A stretch of 64,000 nt of DNA from Klebsiella phage Sugarland: sequence record NC_042093.1. One strand, written 5' to 3'. Both the position numbers and the translations under genes were made by a program. Under the pieces are notes generated by a model. That model did no database searches, was not told where the DNA came from, and saw nothing but the letters and a program-made list of their open reading frames with translations. Numbering within the stretch: position 1 is the stretch's first letter; every line of letters begins with the position of its first letter. This document shows positions 6,247 through 64,000 of the stretch, piece after piece.

Positions 6247-6996
6247 TTAGATTCCCATATCGTTAAAGATTGCCTGGAATGCTTTGGATTCAGCGGAACG
6301 CACGTTATCATGCAACTCTACTAAGGAGAATGGCACATGTTCGTACTGATCGTAGATATCCATGATCAGTTGCAGACCAGAGTCGGATTTAATGTCTTTC
6401 TGCGCTACGTCGCCACAGATTACTAATTTGCAATCCTGACCTACGCGGGTTAGAATACACTTCATTGCTTCTACGGAGATATTTTGAGCTTCGTCAACAA
6501 TTACATAAGAATTGTTGAAGGTACGACCGCGTGCATGTTCGATAGCAAGGTATTGGATTGCCTTGCGTTCAACCAGCCCCTGATAAGAACGTTCCCCCAA
6601 GGCCCATTTAAAGCCATCGGCGATGGGTTCTAACCACGGTGCCATTTTCTCGTTCAGATCCCCTGGCAGCATCCCTAGAGATTTGCCAAGCGGTTCGTTA
6701 GGTCGAACAAGAATGAACTTCTCGTACACAGAACCCGGCTTTGCCAACTCTTGAGCAGCGAGGACAGATGGGATAAACGTTTTACCCGTACCTGCTTCCC
6801 CAATACCAACTGTCACCGTAAAGTTACGGATGGTGCTGATATAGTGCTTTTGCTCAGCGTTCTTCGGCTTGAGTTCTTTTGCGGTTGGTTGAAAACGCTC
6901 CCGTGCTTCAAAATCAACGGGGATGACGTTTTCGTGACGTTCACGTTTTGCGCTACCGTTACGGCGCGACTCCTTACGACGTGCTGCTTTTCTCAT
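6247..6996 (-). CDS. phoH: PhoH-like ATPase
   Basis: 249 aa. Walker A GEAGTGKT and PhoH-family layout. Confidence 0.85.
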   Translation of the reverse strand: MRKAARRKESRRNGSAKRERHENVIPVDFEARERFQPTAKELKPKNAEQKHYISTIRNFTVTVGIGEAGTGKTFIPSVLAAQELAKPGSVYEKFILVRPNEPLGKSLGMLPGDLNEKMAPWLEPIADGFKWALGERSYQGLVERKAIQYLAIEHARGRTFNNSYVIVDEAQNISVEAMKCILTRVGQDCKLVICGDVAQKDIKSDSGLQLIMDIYDQYEHVPFSLVELHDNVRSAESKAFQAIFNDMGI

Positions 6997-7305: not shown

Positions 7306-9135
7306 ATGAACGAATTAGACCTGATTGATAATATCTATAGTATCCTTGATAATGAGGGTGAAGAAGACCTTATGTTTAATAATGCTAATAAGGCAAGCGA
7401 GCAGTTTCCTACACAGAGGGACATGATAGCTGGAGAGGTTTCTAAATATGTGGTAGCACAGGAGCTTCCAGCATACCTATTGACGGCGCATAATAGAGGA
7501 GAGATACACATTCACGATATGGACTACCGCGCACAAGGGTATACTAACTGCTGCCTAGTGGATCTAGCGGGGATGTTTAAGAATGGAACTAAAATTGGTG
7601 GAGCAGAGATTGAAACTCCAAAATCTATCTCTACTGCAGCTGCGGTAACTGCCCAAGTTATTGCCCAGGTAAGCTCGTGTCAGTATGGGGGTACGTCTAT
7701 CGATCGTATTGACGAGGTCTTTGCCCCGTATGTCCGTAAGTCCTACGATAAGCACTTAGCTATTGGCCAGCGTTGGCTGCACGATAGTAAGAAGGCAGCA
7801 GTGTATGCTACTGAGATGACAGAAAAAGAAGTATATGATGCGTGCCAGGGACTAGAGTACGAAGTTAATACACTATTCAACTCTAATGGTCAGCAGCCAT
7901 TTGTGACATTTGGGTTTGGTCTAGGAGAATCCTGGGAGGCACGCATGTTGCAGAAAGCTATGCTGGAAGTTCGTATAAGAGGCCTGGGTGCTTCAGGGCA
8001 TACTGCTGTATTTCCTAAACTTATTTTCGCAGTTAAGGAAGGACTCAATAAGTCCCCAAGTGATCCTAACTACGATATCAAACAGCTGGCGCTCATCTGC
8101 ACTTCTAAGAGAATGTACCCGGATTACGTGAGCTATGAAAGAGTATCGGCTGTTACGGGCGATTTTAAGTTCCCTATGGGTTGTCGGTCTTTCCTTTCGG
8201 CTATTGAATCAGGGGAAACTGCTGGGCGCAATAACCTAGGAGTTGTATCCATTAACCTGCCGCTAGTTGCTGTAGAGTCTGAGGGATGCTTCGATAGGTT
8301 CTGGAAGTTGTTGGATGAATACATTGATAAAGCGATGGCTGCCCACGATTGGGCTATTGAGCGGTTGAAGCGTGTTCGTGCTAAACAGGCACCAATTCTC
8401 TATATGCACGGAGCTTTTGGGGTACGGTTGAAAGCCAATGATCTTGTATGGCCCATCTTTGAAGGCAGGGCATCAGTGTCTTTGGGATATATCGGTATTA
8501 ACGAGGTGATTGAGGTAATGTTTGAAGATACCGACCCTATGTCTCCACCTGCGGTTGAATTTGCAGTACGGGTTCTTAATCACATGAAAGACCGTTGCAA
8601 CAAAAAAGCTGAGGAAACTAATCTAGGATTCAGTCTTTATGCTACTCCTAGCGAATCCTTATGCAATAGATTCAACACTAAAATTGCCGAACAGTATCCG
8701 GAGTATGACTGGCTAACGGATAAAGGCTACCTGACTAATAGTCACCACCTGGATGTCCGTACAAAAGTTGCCCCTAACGTGAAGTTTGACTATGAAGCTA
8801 ATTTTACTACCATCGCCAATGGGGGTAATATATCCTTTGTAGAACTTCCTGAGATGCGTAAGTTTATCTCTGCACTAGAGTGGGTTGTTGACTATGGATT
8901 AAGTAAGTCCCACTACATAGGGGTCAACATTCCAGTTGATGAATGTGAGGAGTGCGGGTATTTAGGCGAATCCGTATCCGGAGAGCATGGTTTTGTATGT
9001 CCCCAATGTGGGTCGGGGAATATCTCAGTTACCCGTCGTGTTTGTGGGTACTTAGGTAGTCCTGGTAGTAGACCCTTTAACCCTGGTAAGCAACAGGAAG
9101 TAATGCAAAGGGTCAAACACATGAATTTGAAATAA
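7306..9135 (+). CDS. nrdD: anaerobic ribonucleoside-triphosphate reductase (class III)
   Basis: 609 aa. C-terminal glycyl-radical motif RVCGYLGS and a Zn ribbon CEECGY...CPQCG. Confidence 0.9.
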   Translation: MNELDLIDNIYSILDNEGEEDLMFNNANKASEQFPTQRDMIAGEVSKYVVAQELPAYLLTAHNRGEIHIHDMDYRAQGYTNCCLVDLAGMFKNGTKIGGAEIETPKSISTAAAVTAQVIAQVSSCQYGGTSIDRIDEVFAPYVRKSYDKHLAIGQRWLHDSKKAAVYATEMTEKEVYDACQGLEYEVNTLFNSNGQQPFVTFGFGLGESWEARMLQKAMLEVRIRGLGASGHTAVFPKLIFAVKEGLNKSPSDPNYDIKQLALICTSKRMYPDYVSYERVSAVTGDFKFPMGCRSFLSAIESGETAGRNNLGVVSINLPLVAVESEGCFDRFWKLLDEYIDKAMAAHDWAIERLKRVRAKQAPILYMHGAFGVRLKANDLVWPIFEGRASVSLGYIGINEVIEVMFEDTDPMSPPAVEFAVRVLNHMKDRCNKKAEETNLGFSLYATPSESLCNRFNTKIAEQYPEYDWLTDKGYLTNSHHLDVRTKVAPNVKFDYEANFTTIANGGNISFVELPEMRKFISALEWVVDYGLSKSHYIGVNIPVDECEECGYLGESVSGEHGFVCPQCGSGNISVTRRVCGYLGSPGSRPFNPGKQQEVMQRVKHMNLK

Positions 9136-23012: not shown

Positions 23013-25583
23013 ATGAAAATTGCAGTTGTAGACAAATCACCGAATAACGTCCGCTATCAGAAACACTTCGAACTCTTCGACCATGAGGTTGAGACCTTCT
23101 TCATGGCTAGTGAGAAAGTAACCGGGCGACTGCTCAAGAAACATATCACTATCGGAACACCGGAGAACCCGTTCAATCCGGAAGATTTTGATTACGTTAT
23201 TCTGGTAGGTGCAGACCCGTTCTTGAAGTTTGCAGCTAAGAAAGGCATTTCCGATTACTCAGGTAAACGTGTTGAGCACGATGGGTATGCTAACTGGATT
23301 GCAAGTATCAGTCCGGCCCAGCTCCACTTTAAACCGGAAATGAAGCCTGTATTTGAAGCCACAGTAGAGAGCATTCATGCCATTCTCAATGGTCGTGAAA
23401 AACGCTCCAAAGCAGGTGATTACCGCCCGATTCAGTGCCCGGATGAAGCCGAAGCATACGTGAAGATGGTGTATACCATGTGTCCCGGTATGATCGCATA
23501 CGACTCCGAAACCAGTGCGCTGTATTGCCGAGATGGTTACATGTTGGGGATCTCAATCTCCCACCAAGAGTACCAGGGCGTGTATATTGATGCAGACGTC
23601 ATCACAGAAAATACCGTCTATTACTTACAGAAGCTGTTCGATAGTCCGGAACATGGCGTTGTGTTCCATAACTTGAAGTTTGATATGCACTTCTACTGTT
23701 ATCATTTAGGTCTATCCTTTGATAAGGCAGCAGAAGAGAAACGCCTCCACGATACCATGCTGATGCACTACGCCCTAGATGAACGACGTGGTACACACGG
23801 TTTGAAATCTTTGGCGATGAAGTATACCGATATGGGGGATTACGATTTTGAACTCGACCAGTTCAAGGAGACGTATTGCAAGACGCATAAGATCAAGAAA
23901 GAGGATTTCTCGTATGATCTCATTCCGTTTGATATCATGTGGCCTTACGCAGCGAAGGATACCGATGCAACACTGCGTCTATCCAATTTCTTCCTGCCAA
24001 AAGTCGAAGCTAACCCTCGACTGAAGTCTCTGTATTACGATGTACTGATGCCAGGATGTGTATTCTTACAGCGCATGGAAGACCGTGGTGTACCGATCTC
24101 CAAAGATCGTCTGAAAGAGGCTCAGGTTCAGTTAATGACTGCGCTACAGCTCGCAAAAGCTAAGCTGTACGAGTATCCCGAGGTTCGTAAGCTAGAGGAA
24201 GATCAAGGCTCGGTGTTTAACGCAGCCTCTGTTGTGCAGCTTCGTAAGCTCCTGTTCGATTATGTTGGCTTAACCCCAACTGGTATCATGACAGATACCG
24301 GTGCAGATTCCACTGGCGCAGATGCCCTGAAAGAACTTTCAGACCAGCATCCGATAGCTAAGACTCTGTTAGAGATTCGTAAGATCTCCAAGCTGCTCTC
24401 GACGTATATCGAGAAGATGCTGATCAGTATTGATGCTGACGGTTGCATTCGTACCGGATTCCATATCCATATGACTACCTCCGGTCGTCTGAGTTCGTCC
24501 GGTAAGCTGAACCTCCAGCAGTTACCCCGTGATGAGTCTGTTATTAAAGGTTGTATTGTTGCCCCTGTAGGTTATCGCATTATCGCATGGGACTTAACAA
24601 CTGCTGAGATTTACTATGCCGCTGTACTGTCTGGTGACATTAACATGCAGCAAGTGTTTATTAACATGCAGAACGACCCGGAAAACTACTCGGACTTCCA
24701 CGGTTCAATCGCACACATGGTATTTGCTCTGCCGTGTAAACCGACTGAGGTTAAAAAGCTGTATCCTGCACTGCGTCAGGCTGCAAAAGCGATTTCGTTC
24801 GGTATTCTTTATGGCTCTGGCCCAGCTAAAGTAGCAGCGTCAGTAAACGAAGCTCTCCTAGAAGAGCACATGAAGACTGGTAAACCGTACACTGAATGTA
24901 CCACTGGTGATGCGAAAGAGTACATCGAAACCTACTTTGGCCGATTCCCTCAGCTTAAGAAATGGATCGATAAATCTCACTCTCAAATCCAGACTAACGG
25001 CTTCATTTACAGCCACTTTGGCCGTAAGCGTCGTCTGCACAACATTAACTCCGAAGACCGTGGTGTACAGGGTGAAGAACTGCGTTCTGGTTTCAACGCC
25101 ATCATTCAGTCTGCATCTTCTGATAGTCTCCTGCTAGGTGCTATCGATACCGATAATGAGATTCGCTCTCTTGGTCTGCAGGACGAAATGAAAATTATCA
25201 TGCTGGTTCACGACTCCGTGGTTGCCATTGTTCGTGAGGATTTGGTTGATCAGTACAACGAGATGCTAATCCGTAACATTCAGGTAGACCGTGGCATTAG
25301 TATTCCGGGCTGTCCTATTGGTATCGACTCTGACTCAGAGGCTGGTGGTTCTCGTGATTACTCCTGTGGTAAAATCAAGAAACAGCGTCCTTCTGTTGCT
25401 TGCATTGAGGACAAGGAGTTTGAGGAGAAAGTACGTAGTATTATCGGTATGGAGGACTTCGATTACGCTGCTATTGCGGCTAACGATGAAAACCACCCTG
25501 ATCACGATAAGTACGCCAATATTAAGTTCTTGCCGGAAATCAGCAAAGATATTGTCAACGTTCGCAGGGTTCTTGGTGCTTAA
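23013..25583 (+). CDS. family A DNA polymerase with 3'-5' exonuclease
   Basis: 856 aa (T5 polymerase is about this size). Exo motif DSET, motif B K...YG (KAISFGILYGSG), motif C VHDS. Confidence 0.9.
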   Translation: MKIAVVDKSPNNVRYQKHFELFDHEVETFFMASEKVTGRLLKKHITIGTPENPFNPEDFDYVILVGADPFLKFAAKKGISDYSGKRVEHDGYANWIASISPAQLHFKPEMKPVFEATVESIHAILNGREKRSKAGDYRPIQCPDEAEAYVKMVYTMCPGMIAYDSETSALYCRDGYMLGISISHQEYQGVYIDADVITENTVYYLQKLFDSPEHGVVFHNLKFDMHFYCYHLGLSFDKAAEEKRLHDTMLMHYALDERRGTHGLKSLAMKYTDMGDYDFELDQFKETYCKTHKIKKEDFSYDLIPFDIMWPYAAKDTDATLRLSNFFLPKVEANPRLKSLYYDVLMPGCVFLQRMEDRGVPISKDRLKEAQVQLMTALQLAKAKLYEYPEVRKLEEDQGSVFNAASVVQLRKLLFDYVGLTPTGIMTDTGADSTGADALKELSDQHPIAKTLLEIRKISKLLSTYIEKMLISIDADGCIRTGFHIHMTTSGRLSSSGKLNLQQLPRDESVIKGCIVAPVGYRIIAWDLTTAEIYYAAVLSGDINMQQVFINMQNDPENYSDFHGSIAHMVFALPCKPTEVKKLYPALRQAAKAISFGILYGSGPAKVAASVNEALLEEHMKTGKPYTECTTGDAKEYIETYFGRFPQLKKWIDKSHSQIQTNGFIYSHFGRKRRLHNINSEDRGVQGEELRSGFNAIIQSASSDSLLLGAIDTDNEIRSLGLQDEMKIIMLVHDSVVAIVREDLVDQYNEMLIRNIQVDRGISIPGCPIGIDSDSEAGGSRDYSCGKIKKQRPSVACIEDKEFEEKVRSIIGMEDFDYAAIAANDENHPDHDKYANIKFLPEISKDIVNVRRVLGA

Positions 25584-26073
25584 CTTTAGCTTACCAGTAT
25601 ATGCTTTAAGGGCTTATGATGTACTCTTCCAAGAGGGGGAGTACATTGTTATCCAGACGAGATTTACAAGGTATGTGCTGGACAACCCAAGCCTTCCTGG
25701 GACATTCTCTCAGCGAAGGCTTTTTCTTTATGGTGAGCGGGAAAATTTACCTTACAAGCTCTATCCATTAAAGAAACAGTTCAAGTACTTATCTCAAATA
25801 ATAAATTCTGGACTAAAGCATTTCATCGACTCCACAGGTAAGATAGTAACATGGAAGCCTACAACTTACTATAACATTATCACGGAACGCGTTAGAGGAT
25901 CAACTAGAATCTTCAACGGAAAGTACCAGTGTTATGTCAAGAACGTTCCATATCCTTTCTTACTTAGTGAACCTGCCAACTATATCTCGTACGCGTTGGT
26001 TCGCGGTTCACCAGTTATTTTTGATACGCACGAAGAGGAGCCAGAAACTCCTAGACTTAGAGTTAAGATATGA
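25576..26073 (+). CDS. hypothetical protein with no in-frame ATG (GTG/TTG start inferred)
   Basis: Protein-like ORF. The 5' part of track ORF 25291-26073 overlaps the polymerase. The only plausible starts are TTG 25573 or GTG 25576. Confidence 0.35.
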   Translation: MLNFSLPVYALRAYDVLFQEGEYIVIQTRFTRYVLDNPSLPGTFSQRRLFLYGERENLPYKLYPLKKQFKYLSQIINSGLKHFIDSTGKIVTWKPTTYYNIITERVRGSTRIFNGKYQCYVKNVPYPFLLSEPANYISYALVRGSPVIFDTHEEEPETPRLRVKI

Positions 26074-58052: not shown

Positions 58053-58534
58053 TATAGGAACCTTGCGAATCCTGATTTCTCAGTCTTGACGTCAGTCGGA
58101 AGCCACTTCGCAAAGCCTGATCTTTCGCCAGTATTGCTTGTACGAGGTGCCTCTGGATTCATACATCTTTCACGTTGTTTCTCAACCCAAATCTTCTGTT
58201 TGTTAGCTGAAAACAACGGAGGTTCTTTCGTATAGACCTTGTGTAAGGTCTGATGATGAAAGACACATAAAGAAACAGTATCTTCTACTAGCTCATGCCA
58301 ATAATGTTGGTAGAACTTGTCCCGATTACTAAGGACGACTTCTGAGTCAGTGAAATCCAGTTGGAATTCTTTAGCAAAGTTTTTTACTAGTAGAGATACT
58401 GTATGATAGTGATGAAGTTCAATGTTCTCAGCACTACCACATATTGCACAGGATGGTGCTCTTTTATACTTGGCCTTAATCCCATCCCGCATTATAGAGA
58501 TTGCGTCTCTTTTATACTTTACGTTAGCAGCCAC
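58052..58534 (-). CDS. HNH endonuclease
   Basis: 160 aa. CAICGS...ELHHYH...CVFHH bba-Me motif. Confidence 0.7.
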   Translation of the reverse strand: MAANVKYKRDAISIMRDGIKAKYKRAPSCAICGSAENIELHHYHTVSLLVKNFAKEFQLDFTDSEVVLSNRDKFYQHYWHELVEDTVSLCVFHHQTLHKVYTKEPPLFSANKQKIWVEKQRERCMNPEAPRTSNTGERSGFAKWLPTDVKTEKSGFARFL

Positions 58535-59222
58535 TGCTCTCCTCCGCTCCGAATTCTTCTATTAAAAAGTCTCTAGCAAGCTCTGGGGTTATATTGAAGA
58601 ACTCAGTACTACCGCAGAAACCAGAGTACGAACAGCGTAGATCGTAGAATCTTCTGTGAGATTCTTTCTCAAGATCTAGAGCTGTGGACCTGTCAAAGAA
58701 GAATACATATCTCAGGGCTAGGTCTTCGAACCCTGATGCACGTTTTACCTCTTGGAGGCGTTTCTTAGGAGATACGCTAACGCCTATCTTGGTGCCGGCG
58801 GTAGATCCCATAATATATAGGTATCCCCCGGCACCCCATGTATTTGCGCAGTCAGGACAACCTTTTCCGGCTTTGATATTATCTAGCCTAGATGACCACT
58901 CATGTCCTGAACTACAACGTATACGTATCGGCTCTTTGGCAGATTTATATACGCTAATAAGAGTTAAATCTAACTGAGATAAGTAATCTGCAACCTCTTG
59001 TTGGGTTAGCTTCTGATTACCACTACATTTCCCACATCCCTTACCCCCATGCATGATGGAGTGAGGAGTAGCTTCCCAGGTATGCCCGGAAAGACATGAA
59101 AATGCAGTTTTTGTTCGCTGGTTAGTATACTCGCCGATGATCTTTATGCCCCGGTCTGCCAGTCTTGTGTTAATTTCTTCAGTAGTTAGTTTAGCTCTAG
59201 CCATATTAAATATTCCTCTCAT
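58524..59222 (-). CDS. T5orf172/GIY-YIG-like domain protein with two N-terminal Zn-ribbon repeats
   Basis: 232 aa. Two CxxGHxW...GKGCxxC repeats, then GYLYIMGSTAGTKIGVS...R motif typical of T5orf172 (MUG113) domains. Confidence 0.55.
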   Translation of the reverse strand: MRGIFNMARAKLTTEEINTRLADRGIKIIGEYTNQRTKTAFSCLSGHTWEATPHSIMHGGKGCGKCSGNQKLTQQEVADYLSQLDLTLISVYKSAKEPIRIRCSSGHEWSSRLDNIKAGKGCPDCANTWGAGGYLYIMGSTAGTKIGVSVSPKKRLQEVKRASGFEDLALRYVFFFDRSTALDLEKESHRRFYDLRCSYSGFCGSTEFFNITPELARDFLIEEFGAEESSGC

Positions 59223-61150: not shown

Positions 61151-63127
61151 TTAGGCAAGCCTTTGCACAGCAATCCTAACATCAGGAAGAATCACTCGCA
61201 TGTTCATAATATTAGACATTTCAGTGTTAACCCATACCTCAACACTGCCATCAGCTCTGGCAACCAACCAGTATGTAATAGCATAGTCGCCTTGAGTAGC
61301 AGAGTTAGTAGTAGCAGGCGCCCACATGGCCTTCATTTGCATGGCGTTGTTCCCAGGAATAACCCCACATTGGACTACCGTACCACGAATAAAGTGAAAG
61401 GGCACACACATGTTAACAGGTAAACACATGATTTGATGCACACGTTTCTGGAAGTGATTTCCGAAAATTCTCAGCCTACTATCTACCTCGCTCCACTGGG
61501 TAAGATCTTCTAGAGGGTTATAACATCCAATCCCTGCAGCAGCGATCCACTCATCGTTTTTCCAGTCTAGAGTGACGACGCAAGCTCCATTTCTAGAGTT
61601 ATTAATCCCTAACCATAAGGTAGCTAGATGATGGCTGGCGTTACCGCTGGTACGTAGGTTTCCCCCAATATCGGCGAAGCCGGTACCACCTACTAGGCGA
61701 AGAGGTCGAGTTGCCTCAGACCATACTGGACCCCATTGATTTCCAATCTCCGGTGGATTGGATTTAACGTACCACTGCGCATCAGACCTAAAGTTATATA
61801 CCCCAACTGTGGTTACGTGCATAGCACTAACGTTACCCTGCCCGAATTCGGCACTATTATCCGGTCGAGTCAGAGGCTGGTTGAATTGGGTGTACCCATT
61901 ATTACCAATAGTAGCATCCCCATTAAATCTAGCAACATTGGTTGCAATAACCCTTATGTCCGGTCTATTACCTGGGCTGTAGTTTATGTCATTCTGGTTT
62001 ATGAACTTCCATCCAGTGTTCATTAGGTTTATACCGTTTACAATAAACTCTCGAGGGCTGATTTTAATCTCTTGGTTGCGAGAGCCAAATACGTCCTCTG
62101 CATAGAACCCCTGCCCATTGTACTTCATATTAGTAATATACCAGCGAACACGCTTAGGGACTCTCCAGTTGTTATCCCTATAAATAGCGTTGTTACCCCA
62201 ACCACTACCAGCATTATTATTATCAGTGTTCTCCCACCCCATAAAGTTATTGGGCGGACCACGGAAAAAACCTGCTTTGTACTGAGTCTCCTGATAAGAC
62301 TCAGTTTGGATATTGTGAGAGTAAGGCCCACCGACCGGATTGGAACTCTGCCCATATCTAGGGCCCATGTGTCCGTATATGTTACGATTGAGGGTCTCCC
62401 CGCGTAAACATATACTGTTAACCCCAGTAGTACGCATCCAAGGATGACGCATTGCATCTGCACCAATAGTAAGTGGTCTATTGGGCGGAGACACAGAACC
62501 GGCTATATTGCCACTAAAAGCCCCCCTATAGAGCACCCATCCAGCTTTAATAATAGTCTCAAAGTTTGGTCGTATAGGAGCTCCAACCGGCGGCCCAGGA
62601 CCCCTGTCACCCCACTCGGAGTTTACTCCCCAAGTGTACATACACCCAGTACCATCACGCAACTTCTCATTAATAGTACCTGGAGTTTCCTCAAAATAGA
62701 AACTAACATCCATATGCAGATCAGCAGAAGCACAAACGTTAGTCTTCATACTAGCCATAGTACCTGCAGAAGCCTGGGAACCGACAGTATTACTAAAGTA
62801 AGCGTTATACGCCTTGGCGCCTACACCCAGGGATGTACCGTAAATGAAACGTCTAGTACCATCCTCAAACTCAACCTCAGTTAAGACAACCCTGTCGTAG
62901 TCTGCGGACAGTACCTGAATAATCCTGTCTGGCATTCTAGTACAACGATACCAATCACCACCATCCCAGAGGTCTCTTTCGTGAGTTTCTAAAACTACAA
63001 CGTGAGGCATATCACTATGGAATATAGTATCCCAACCTGGATTTGTATGGTTATTGACGTCTTTATTGTTGCCAGAGGTGAGAGACAATACTTTCTTGTC
63101 GCCTATCCTTCCTGCATAAAACCCCAT
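61151..63127 (-). CDS. receptor-binding tail protein candidate (pb5/Oad-like)
   Basis: 658 aa (T5 pb5 640 aa). Last late gene before the divergent promoter, where oad sits in T5. Beta-rich, Gly/Asn/Trp-rich composition. Confidence 0.5.
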
Positions 63128-63143
63128 AAAAACCTCAAAATCT

Positions 63144-63172
63144 CACTTGCTAACAAGTGACTTTTATAATAT
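63144..63172 (+). promoter_or_regulatory. promoter (TTGCTA, 17-nt spacer, TATAAT) with perfect palindrome CACTTG-CTAA-CAAGTG across the -35
   Basis: Read directly. Palindrome at 63141-63156. Confidence 0.5.
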
Positions 63173-63240
63173 AATATTATTATAAATTAAATCAACCGCC
63201 AAGTAAACCAGATTTTTTAAAACCATCTAGGAGGACCACT

Positions 63241-63465
63241 ATGGAAGTAGTTATAGGAGCACTTGTTTTACTCTCAATCGTACTATTTGTCATTACCGTA
63301 AAGCAAGGTAAGGCAATCAAACAGCTAGAACGCACTAACGGGGTGTTGCAAAAGTCTTATGACAACCAAACCCGTTTGCTGCATAAGGCGCAGTTAAACC
63401 TGTCTGAATGCAAGGCAGAACTAGAATCAGCAAACAAAATCTACATTACTAAGGGTATGGTGTAA
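63241..63465 (+). CDS. small single-pass membrane protein (N-terminal TM, C-terminal coiled coil)
   Basis: 74 aa. AGGAGG RBS. Hydrophobic VVIGALVLLSIVLFVITV. No lipobox. Confidence 0.45.
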   Translation: MEVVIGALVLLSIVLFVITVKQGKAIKQLERTNGVLQKSYDNQTRLLHKAQLNLSECKAELESANKIYITKGMV

Positions 63466-63468
63466 AAC

Positions 63469-63930
63469 ATGACTATTGTATTAATTTTCACAACATTCTT
63501 TTTCCTGGCAGCAGTTTGGTTCGGTGTGCGGGCACATGACCTGCGGAACGCGGTAGTAGCGGCAGATCTTCGTAACAAAAGCCTACATCAAGAGATCCTC
63601 CAAACTCGGGCGGAACGTCAAGTAGCGATCTCGAAACACCAACGAGTCATGAACGATCTTCGGAATGACCCGAGCAACCCGTACTACATCCCTCCAGTGA
63701 CACCGCAGGTAGCGAGACGCAAACAGAATCGGGCAGGTTCGGAGGATTCTCGGAAAGTTTCGGGAAGTCCTTCATCGAACTCGGGAAGAACTCGTGGAGA
63801 TGACGGGTCGACAGCAGCAATCATAGCTACAACCGCGGCAGTTGCTACGTATAGTGGGTATGACTCGGGAAGTTCTTACTGCGACAGCGGCAGTAGCAGT
63901 AGTAGCTTTGATTCGGGATGTTCTTTCTAA
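63469..63930 (+). CDS. membrane-anchored protein with Pro-rich segment and Ser/Gly/Cys-rich C-terminal tail
   Basis: 153 aa. N-terminal TM. CGG/TCGGGA-rich codon usage unlike the rest of the window. Confidence 0.4.
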   Translation: MTIVLIFTTFFFLAAVWFGVRAHDLRNAVVAADLRNKSLHQEILQTRAERQVAISKHQRVMNDLRNDPSNPYYIPPVTPQVARRKQNRAGSEDSRKVSGSPSSNSGRTRGDDGSTAAIIATTAAVATYSGYDSGSSYCDSGSSSSSFDSGCSF

Positions 63931-64000
63931 TGGCCTAAGTTTGCCTAAGTACTCCCTTTAGCCTTTTCTCCAAATTTCATAAAGTTTTACGTGAGGGTGG

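Follow-up and report, generated by a model that had tools for sequence, protein, structure and literature searches.

Two membrane-anchored proteins and no receptor-blocking lipoprotein beside the pb5-type receptor-binding protein gene of Sugarlandvirus phages

T5-like phages are the textbook example of a receptor-binding protein (RBP) paired with a cognate lipoprotein that blocks the receptor. Llp, the lipoprotein in question, is an early outer-membrane protein that blocks FhuA or BtuB from the periplasmic side (PMC9586334, PMC4728585). A large group of Klebsiella phages that are therapeutic candidates has a pb5-type RBP without the lipoprotein, and a conserved pair of membrane proteins stands at the locus instead. 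What this pair does bears on how, or whether, these phages avoid superinfection and the loss of progeny on debris. We address the question at the right end of a 64,000-nucleotide stretch of Klebsiella phage Sugarland (NC_042093.1; the whole stretch is called the window here), where a first-pass annotation had recognized the equivalent of the T5 llp locus and had proposed that its two genes form a non-orthologous superinfection-exclusion or lysis-inhibition cassette matched to a divergent RBP.

Our reading, to which we assign a probability of about 0.7, is that the locus is an early operon for two membrane-anchored proteins, that it has no Llp and is not matched to the RBP, and that the pair is the positional counterpart of T5.161 and T5.162 of phage T5. 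What is new here is that an entire genus with pb5-type RBPs lacks Llp and that a strongly constrained C-terminal module is common to a second llp-less lineage; the most constrained part of the pair is independent of receptor type. The comparison also draws attention to T5.159 to T5.162, unstudied genes that are cotranscribed with llp in T5.

The llp-type locus and the absence of Llp

The last 901 bases of the window (63100-64000) match the end of the record of Klebsiella phage Spivey (MK630230.3; Sugarlandvirus, Demerecviridae) with 100% identity, and a further 77 Klebsiella phage records match this segment at 80 to 97%. The right edge of the window is the end of the Spivey record, and the window corresponds to the right end of a T5-like phage genome. 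The gene names used here and all genome-wide codon, lipoprotein, and annotation figures are those of the Spivey genome. The main features of the locus are these:

61151-63127, minus strand: RBP gene, 658 amino acids (aa), T5 pb5 (Oad) homolog; open reading frame (ORF) and homology searches
63147-63175, plus strand: sigma-70-type promoter TTGCTA-17-TATAAT of the two-gene operon; 10 of 12 consensus positions matched
63179-63207, minus strand: promoter-like site TTTACT-17-TATAAT directed toward the RBP gene; consensus match only
63229-63234, plus strand: Shine-Dalgarno sequence AGGAGG of the 74-aa gene, 6 nt upstream of the ATG; ribosome-binding site annotated in the Spivey record
63241-63465, plus strand: gene 1, CPT_Spivey_186, 74 aa; ORF, hydropathy, AlphaFold2, phrog_37669
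63469-63930, plus strand: gene 2, CPT_Spivey_187, 153 aa; ORF, alignment, AlphaFold2

The RBP is a full-length pb5 homolog, aligned by phmmer over residues 1-657 with PDB chains 8b14_B and 8a8c_B (E 1.7e-145), matching phrog_4815 at E 1e-257 and sharing 39.8% identity with T5 oad in tblastn. Divergent from it lie genes 1 and 2, the second starting 3 nt past the stop codon of the first. The same arrangement is found in three diverged metagenomic loci (L013, L014, and L015; RBPs of 608, 643, and 649 aa), in which the stop and start of the two genes overlap as TAATG. The terminal repeat follows directly: in phage GZ8, whose record contains both repeats, the annotated right terminal repeat begins 83 nt after the stop of the 153-aa gene. 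The first gene of the repeat is an unnamed 723-nt ORF on the opposite strand in GZ8 and a deoxynucleotide monophosphatase (dNMPase) gene in Spivey and L014. The divergent arrangement beside a full-length pb5 homolog, the corresponding promoter, and the adjacent repeat all bear out the equivalence to the T5 llp locus, and the divergent promoter that had been proposed for the two genes is the TTGCTA-17-TATAAT element listed above.

This promoter resembles that of llp well beyond its hexamers. The Spivey element continues into ATTATTATAAATTAAAT, the annotated T5 llp promoter (TTGCTT-17-TATAAT) into AGTATTATAAATTAAAT, and both have TATTATAAATTAAAT downstream of the -10 box. The back-to-back -10 boxes TATAATAnTATTATA, followed by AAATTAAAT (window 63163-63191), are kept between Spivey and the T5 oad/llp intergenic region despite the differing flanking genes. 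By this conservation, the rightward promoter is orthologous to the T5 llp promoter, and we infer the early timing of the operon from the T5 annotation.

No lipoprotein accompanies it. The lipobox pattern [LVI][ASTVI][GAS]C is absent from both the 74-aa and the 153-aa protein, as the first-pass annotation had stated of LxxC, and scanning all frames of 63000-64000 returned neither a usable lipobox ORF nor an embedded Rz1-like lipoprotein ORF. We also looked for a lipobox-containing ORF beyond the right edge of the window and found only the terminal repeat, starting with the dNMPase gene, and no lipoprotein gene. A whole-genome scan for a signal peptide plus lipobox gave the annotated o-spanin as the only credible candidate, together with three further ORFs with implausible signal peptides. 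When the Llp proteins of T5, DT57C, and Stitch were compared with the two proteins and with the whole Spivey genome (blastp, tblastn), the best match (E 0.04) was the signal peptide of the o-spanin. On these searches, Spivey is without Llp anywhere in its genome.

Probable counterparts in T5

Between oad and the right terminal repeat, T5 carries llp and then four small genes, T5.159 to T5.162, each annotated as encoding one transmembrane domain. The layout is shared by DT57C, Stitch, Shivani, and Ob_P, whatever their RBP and Llp type. The last two of these genes overlap and encode T5.161 (64 aa, starting MMEVV, a membrane helix plus a coil) and T5.162 (81 aa, a membrane helix plus a charged helix). 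Gene 1 of Spivey is at the T5.161 position, penultimate before the repeat in an llp-type operon, and its product shares with T5.161 a size of 64 to 75 aa and an N-terminal membrane helix with one long helix. Gene 2 is at the T5.162 position, the last gene before the right terminal repeat, and likewise encodes an N-terminal membrane helix followed by a charged helix. The likeness of the two pairs thus comprises promoter and slot, gene order, a 64- to 74-aa M(M)EVV protein followed by a longer one, coupled or overlapping genes, and the same charge bias. They differ in that the 153-aa protein has a PYYxPPVTPQVARR motif and a 43-residue Cys-containing tail, both missing from T5.162, and in that Spivey lacks llp, T5.159, and T5.160.

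At the sequence level, a profile of the 74-aa family widened with L013 and L014 aligned to a profile of five T5.161-like sequences with an hhalign score of 84% (E 7e-6, 54 columns), compared with 0.3 to 9% in four control cross-comparisons of profiles of membrane helix plus coil. The 74-aa protein is probably a distant homolog of T5.161. The earlier proposal that the pair stands in place of Llp holds insofar as this is the llp locus and it has no lipoprotein, but the pair looks like the T5.161/T5.162 counterpart in an llp-less phage rather than a replacement of Llp. The resemblance to Llp itself (T5, BF23/DT57C) lies in a first gene behind the same divergent promoter beside a pb5-type RBP and in the encoding of a small envelope protein (PMC9586334, PMC4728585). 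The Spivey proteins differ from Llp in having no signal peptide, no lipobox, and no sequence similarity, in being helical anchors and not a small folded lipoprotein, and in not being coinherited with the type of RBP.

T5.159 to T5.162 lie at 110826-111490 of the T5 record (L005 1360-2024), co-oriented with llp, and are kept across Tequintavirus and Epseptimavirus. PHROGs places the T5.162 family under "moron, auxiliary metabolic gene and host takeover." In our literature search, we found no paper mentioning T5.159 to T5.162 and no report of a protein receptor or an exclusion protein in Sugarlandvirus; recent papers go no further than to infer that the pb5 homolog has some outer-membrane protein as its receptor. 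In Enterobacter phage KKP_3711, the locus has neither llp nor a tail-bearing protein, so that the slot between the RBP gene and the repeat is simply variable. An unannotated 38-aa ORF beside the RBP gene of KKP_3711 (L017 2738-2854) is homologous to T5.159.

Architecture and topology of the two proteins

ORFs, hydropathy, and AlphaFold2 agree with the earlier description of a single-pass 74-aa protein and a membrane-anchored 153-aa protein with a Pro-rich segment and a Ser/Gly/Cys-rich tail. Each has one strongly hydrophobic N-terminal segment and no second one (Kyte-Doolittle 19-residue maxima, 2.79 and 2.28). AlphaFold2 models the 74-aa protein as one helix (residues 2-73; confidence score [pLDDT], 88), in which the membrane helix, approximately residues 3-19, runs on into a single long helix. 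Its family keeps the motifs ME[VI]V, AYDNQ, and YITKGMV and matches phrog_37669, a PHROGs family of unknown function (E 2e-52). A variant with a longer C terminus, ending in ALEVVKNVDINKITDVPGAY in place of the conserved LESANKIYITKGMV, is found in L014 (4756-5001) and in protein P0041.

In the 153-aa protein, the N-terminal membrane helix is followed by a coiled helix to about residue 66, a Pro-rich/basic motif, a Ser-rich linker, and the C-terminal tail; the model has helices at residues 2-66 and 79-90 and a mostly unstructured, low-confidence C terminus (tail pLDDT, <50). The Pro-rich segment is DPSNPYYIPPVTPQ, and the Ser/Gly/Cys tail carries Cys138 and Cys151. The 74-aa protein has a cysteine at residue 57 that is found in most members and missing in L013 and L015. 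Two segments of gene 2 stand out in the alignment:

63667-63720, plus strand: motif DPSNPYY(I/V)PPVTPQVARR, residues 67-84 of the gene 2 product; invariant alignment columns
63799-63927, plus strand: C-terminal tail module DDGSTAAIIATTAAVATYSGYDSGSSYCDSGSSSSSFDSGCSF, residues 111-153 (43 residues); most constrained part of the locus

The DPSNPYY(I/V)PPVTPQVARR motif is retained in L013, L014, and L015 although the N-terminal part of the protein is only 42 to 55% identical there.

In all members of both families, no Lys or Arg precedes the membrane helix and 1 to 7 follow it. According to the positive-inside rule, a charge bias of this kind predicts an orientation with the N terminus out and the C terminus in, as in ZipA or ATP synthase subunit b. 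Since the 74-aa family also has an invariant Glu at position 2, we infer that both proteins are inserted in the inner membrane with the N terminus out and the bulk in the cytoplasm.

Variation of the pair is independent of the RBP

The gene pair is present in 78 phage records, which are essentially all Sugarlandvirus records, and nowhere else among 50,697 phage records. A word-indexed search of 5.8 billion proteins returned only a narrow family, whose most distant members are 55% identical to the 153-aa protein or 62% identical to the 74-aa protein. An exhaustive hidden Markov model search of 1.84 billion representative proteins recovered, besides the phage lineage, a single weak hit from outside it, P0047, whose gene lies on an uninformative 1.2-kb contig without a phage match. 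A scan of IMG/VR viral contigs returned a single locus. Neither protein matched a significant family in Pfam, NCBIfam, or PADLOC, a profile search of PDB sequences gave no match, and in PHROGs the 153-aa protein had only weak hits.

The first-pass annotation had described the cassette as matched to a divergent RBP. The identities between loci that carry different RBP alleles, including the 650-aa allele of phage vB_Kpn13-P1, do not bear this out:

L013 versus L015: RBP, 33%; 74-aa protein, 100%; 153-aa protein, 88%
Kpn13-P1 versus L014: RBP, 95%; 74-aa protein, 69%; 153-aa protein, 76%
Spivey versus Kpn13-P1: RBP, 31%; 74-aa protein, 66% (92% in the C-terminal half); 153-aa protein, 91%

Identical 74-aa proteins thus stand beside RBPs that are only 33% identical in L013 and L015, and the reverse is seen in Kpn13-P1 and L014. 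Among six loci, the identity of the pair and that of the RBP are uncoupled, and in these comparisons RBP alleles reassort independently of the gene pair. The opposite holds for Llp, the type of which follows the receptor in T5-like phages (PMC4728585). This free reassortment argues against a blocker matched to the RBP. In all, the RBP alleles of Sugarlandvirus-like phages number at least three or four (658, ~650/643, and 608 aa) and share only 30 to 35% identity, the 650-aa allele being nearest to that of Salmonella phage GSW6 (33%). Such divergence suggests several different outer-membrane receptors within one genus.

The two parts of the 153-aa protein evolve very differently. From Asp111 onward, Spivey compared with L013 and L015 has a proportion of synonymous differences (pS) of 0.63 to 0.65 and of nonsynonymous differences (pN) of 0.05 (pN/pS, ~0.08), values by which the C-terminal tail is under strong purifying selection at the protein level. 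The N-terminal part, with the membrane helix and the coil, evolves fast (pN/pS, ~0.6), and it changes between lineages together with the 74-aa protein. The abutment or overlap of the genes and this joint change fit a complex of the two proteins.

A tail module shared with the Eos lineage

The constrained tail is also found in a second lineage. Phage Eos (MN478377, unclassified Markadamsvirinae) has no lipoprotein at the locus; it carries there genes for a T5.159 homolog, for two proteins made of a membrane helix and a coil, and, in last place, for a 183-aa protein built like the 153-aa protein of Spivey. The tail of the family of this protein (Eos63, from Eos and the metagenomic relatives P0048-P0050) aligned to that of the 153-aa protein with an hhalign score of 95.8% (E 7e-9), and both end in CSF. 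Two of the three Eos relatives end in DCGSSSPSVDCSF and the shorter Sugarlandvirus variants in CDSGSSSFDSGCSF; Spivey has two more Ser residues and ends in CDSGSSSSSFDSGCSF. As in Sugarlandvirus, the Eos63-type gene is the last before the terminal repeat. Both proteins have a membrane helix, a coil, a basic/Pro linker, a Ser-rich stretch, an Ala/Thr/Val-rich stretch, and a Y-D-x-S..SSY..C..CSF tail. They can be aligned only over the last ~60 residues, however, and Eos63 differs further in having extra cysteines in the coil, no PYYxPP motif, and codons that are not CGG-rich; upstream of it there are two or three other small membrane genes, one being the T5.159 homolog. The two llp-less lineages, Sugarlandvirus and Eos, thus have the module, and none of the five llp-carrying phages compared (T5, DT57C, Stitch, Shivani, and Ob_P) does, in what is a small sample.

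Codon composition of gene 2

Gene 2 had also been described as foreign because of its CGG- and TCGGGA-rich codons, and the enrichment is real. Of the 13 Arg codons in gene 2, 6 are CGG, against 8.9% in the genome (binomial P, 5e-4), and of its 23 Ser codons, 8 are TCG, against 9.2% (P, 7e-4). Both shares are roughly four- to fivefold those of the genome as a whole, and there are four copies of TCGGGA. A foreign origin was nevertheless rejected, and the statement that these codons are unlike the rest of the window fails as well. The GC content of gene 2 (0.51) is close to the 0.498 expected from its Ala/Gly/Arg/Pro/Ser-rich product with the codon usage of the genome, its GC content at third codon positions (0.46) equals the genome median, and its GC excess is at the 71st percentile. 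Its CGG share ranks third among 81 Spivey ORFs, with two higher and two more at 40% or above of Arg codons. Since its GC content follows its amino acids and other ORFs are equally CGG-heavy, gene 2 is not of foreign composition; these data suggest that the phage has a set of CGG-rich genes and not one lone foreign gene. Gene 1 is unremarkable, with a GC content of 0.41 and a codon likelihood at the 39th percentile. Among the homologs of gene 2, the TCGGGA count varies from 1 to 5 and TCG use from 1 to 8.

Three of the other CGG-rich ORFs, in which CGG accounts for 40 to 62% of Arg codons, are CPT_Spivey_015, CPT_Spivey_051, and CPT_Spivey_013 (record 8048-8431, 25582-26031, and 6450-6944), in the left part of the genome outside the window.

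Possible functions

Early in infection, two small helical proteins would be made from the llp-type promoter and inserted in the inner membrane with the N terminus out. The 74-aa and 153-aa proteins would pair through their covarying membrane and coiled helices into a heteromer facing the cytoplasm, and the invariant tail of the 153-aa protein would bind a partner that stays the same whatever receptor the phage uses. The job that we favor for such a complex would be to keep out related DNA as it enters the cell or to protect the infected envelope, and not to mask an outer-membrane receptor; in T5, this role would be exercised alongside Llp, in Spivey without it. We put forward this receptor-independent role in the envelope or in entry exclusion only tentatively, as a proposal that could well prove wrong. 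T4 Imm, HK97 gp15, and P22 SieA are inner-membrane superinfection-exclusion proteins that block DNA entry. The Spivey proteins may be like them, as a conjecture, in being small inner-membrane phage proteins, early or constitutive and independent of the outer-membrane receptor; they differ in that there is no sequence or fold relationship, and no search aimed at these proteins was made. If true, a general entry block would be relevant to the design of phage cocktails containing Sugarlandvirus.

Several observations weigh against the reading of the locus given here. The link to T5.161 comes from small profiles of helical, low-information sequence: in blastp the 74-aa protein matched T5.161 only at E 0.14, the family profile aligned with the single T5.161 sequence at 17% in hhalign, and there was no hit to phrog_5851, the PHROG of T5.161. 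The 153-aa protein and T5.162 align over nothing but the membrane helix (hhalign, 11 to 21%), with no phrog_6447 hit. The topology follows from the charge rule only, and the Lys/Arg difference is weak in the 153-aa protein (2, or 1 in L014); the rule is not strict, since lambda Rz, which is known to be N-in, has a value of 1 by this measure. The tail, rich in Ser and Asp, has two invariant Cys residues spaced 10 to 12 residues apart, a pattern that a periplasmic disulfide loop would explain no less well than a cytoplasmic location. The covariation of neighboring segments can be mere linkage, no homolog with a known function was found among the proteins recovered, and the occurrence of the tail module in llp-less lineages would also fit a functional replacement of Llp.

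Such a replacement, formed by the pair or by just the 153-aa protein, would be an inner-membrane anchor whose periplasmic C-terminal part reaches the outer membrane and inactivates the receptor of the cognate RBP, preventing superinfection and the loss of progeny on debris. It would account for the position, promoter, and presumed early timing that the pair has in common with llp, and for a phage with a pb5-type RBP and no lipoprotein to block its receptor. With its membrane anchor, 45-residue helix, Pro-rich segment, and flexible linker, the 153-aa protein might extend across the periplasm as TonB or TolA does, and the invariant Cys pair could form a disulfide loop there. The tail module, moreover, does occur in Sugarlandvirus and Eos, which lack llp, and is missing from T5, DT57C, Stitch, Shivani, and Ob_P. 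We nevertheless regard a non-orthologous, RBP-matched Llp as quite unlikely, given that the pair is not matched to the RBP in either direction (74-aa proteins identical and 153-aa proteins 88% identical beside RBPs of 33% identity, and the reverse) and that the tail is nearly invariant over at least four RBP alleles, that of Eos (25% RBP identity) included, whereas Llp types follow the receptor (PMC4728585). The charge bias, moreover, predicts a cytoplasmic bulk, and KKP_3711 is without both llp and a 153-aa-type protein. The constancy of the tail while RBP alleles are swapped, and its occurrence in llp-less lineages, would be explained by a replacement that does not depend on receptor type, in which the 153-aa protein, aided by the 74-aa protein and anchored in the inner membrane, would cross the periplasm much as TonB or TolA does and its disulfide-looped tail would jam a common step of T5-like entry, for example at the periplasmic face of TonB-dependent transporters or at the tape-measure channel. 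This version, too, is unlikely. By comparison, we consider it only somewhat unlikely that the pair are host takeover proteins unrelated to exclusion, which would inhibit host division, transport, or a membrane-bound defense from the cytoplasmic face and would occupy a hypervariable "moron" slot at the genome end. The RBP-to-repeat slot does differ between Demerecviridae lineages, the PHROG category of T5.162 includes host takeover, and the predicted cytoplasmic orientation and the conservation of the tail independently of the RBP would be expected. Nothing specific stands against this explanation, which differs from the favored one only in the target, but the T5 counterparts are cotranscribed with llp, and all five T5 products are located in the envelope, which hints at a role in the envelope or in entry.

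A part in lysis, as an antiholin, a holin modulator, or an extra spanin-like component setting the timing or inhibition of lysis, appears very unlikely. Both proteins have the architecture of a membrane helix plus coiled coil, the 74-aa protein has weak matches to the Rz-like spanin family phrog_214 (E 0.009) and to an NCBIfam holin model (E 0.057) and a Cys in most members, and a Pro-rich segment, a feature of o-spanins, is present in the 153-aa protein. These matches, however, fall well short of significance and are of the kind that any membrane helix with a coil would give, there is no lipobox, and the Cys of the 74-aa protein is missing in L013 and L015. Spivey has a holin (Spivey_044), an endolysin, an i-spanin, and a lipoprotein o-spanin annotated elsewhere, and the two genes lie behind an llp-type early promoter far from the lysis cassette. 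A two-component spanin of the Rz/Rz1 type was rejected: the pair has no lipoprotein partner, and the canonical i/o-spanin pair is annotated at record 23594-24297. Finally, a signal in the DNA itself, close to the boundary of the terminal repeat, could underlie both the conserved 3' end of gene 2 and its unusual codons; such a signal might serve packaging or nicking or consist of protein-binding repeats such as TCGGGAAG. The tail-coding region does lie 80 to 200 nt from this boundary and contains the short direct repeats TTCGGGAAGTCCTT, CTCGGGAAGTTCTT, and TTCGGGATGTTCTT. The synonymous sites of the tail are nearly saturated while the protein is kept, and, since pS is high while pN is low, a signal of this kind is essentially refuted; the variable TCGGGA count and TCG use among the homologs also speak against it. 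Resemblances to class II microcin tails, TonB boxes, and C-terminal signals of outer-membrane proteins gave no testable match and are not claimed.

The palindrome at the promoter

The palindrome that had been noted over the -35 box of the rightward promoter, and suggested to be a repressor operator, is present and slightly longer than described:

63143-63160, no strand assigned: perfect palindrome TCACTTG-CTAA-CAAGTGA with 7-bp arms; overlaps the -35 box of the rightward promoter

It lies within the 113-nt intergenic region, and its arms are kept in diverged relatives (GZ8, Kpn13-P1, and L014) with differing loops (CTAA, TCAA, and CTTA). It was not found in T5, DT57C, Stitch, or Eos, and it has no Rfam match. 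A single palindrome is not remarkable by itself, because the 64-kb window contains 38 perfect palindromes with 7-bp arms. On the leftward RBP transcript, it falls within the 5' leader, immediately before the RBP Shine-Dalgarno sequence, and, because it stands between this sequence and the leftward promoter-like site, a hairpin in the leader of the RBP mRNA is at least as likely as an operator. In L013 and L015, the palindrome has one change, which would give a G.U pair on the minus-strand RNA and an A.C mismatch on the plus strand; a single substitution that preserves pairing is thin evidence for an RNA hairpin.

Putative mobile elements near the locus

A 232-aa ORF at window positions 58524-59222 (minus strand), between the nicking endonuclease gene and terL, has T5orf172/MUG113, treble-clef zinc-finger, and CapR domains. 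Annotated as hypothetical in Spivey and missing at the same place in GZ8, L013, L014, and L015, it looks like a mobile insertion of the homing-endonuclease type. In vB_Kpn13-P1 (L004 2724-3191), an endonuclease gene with HNH_3 and AP2 domains sits between the 153-aa gene and the terminal repeat, and Shivani carries similar HNH insertions in the same slot.

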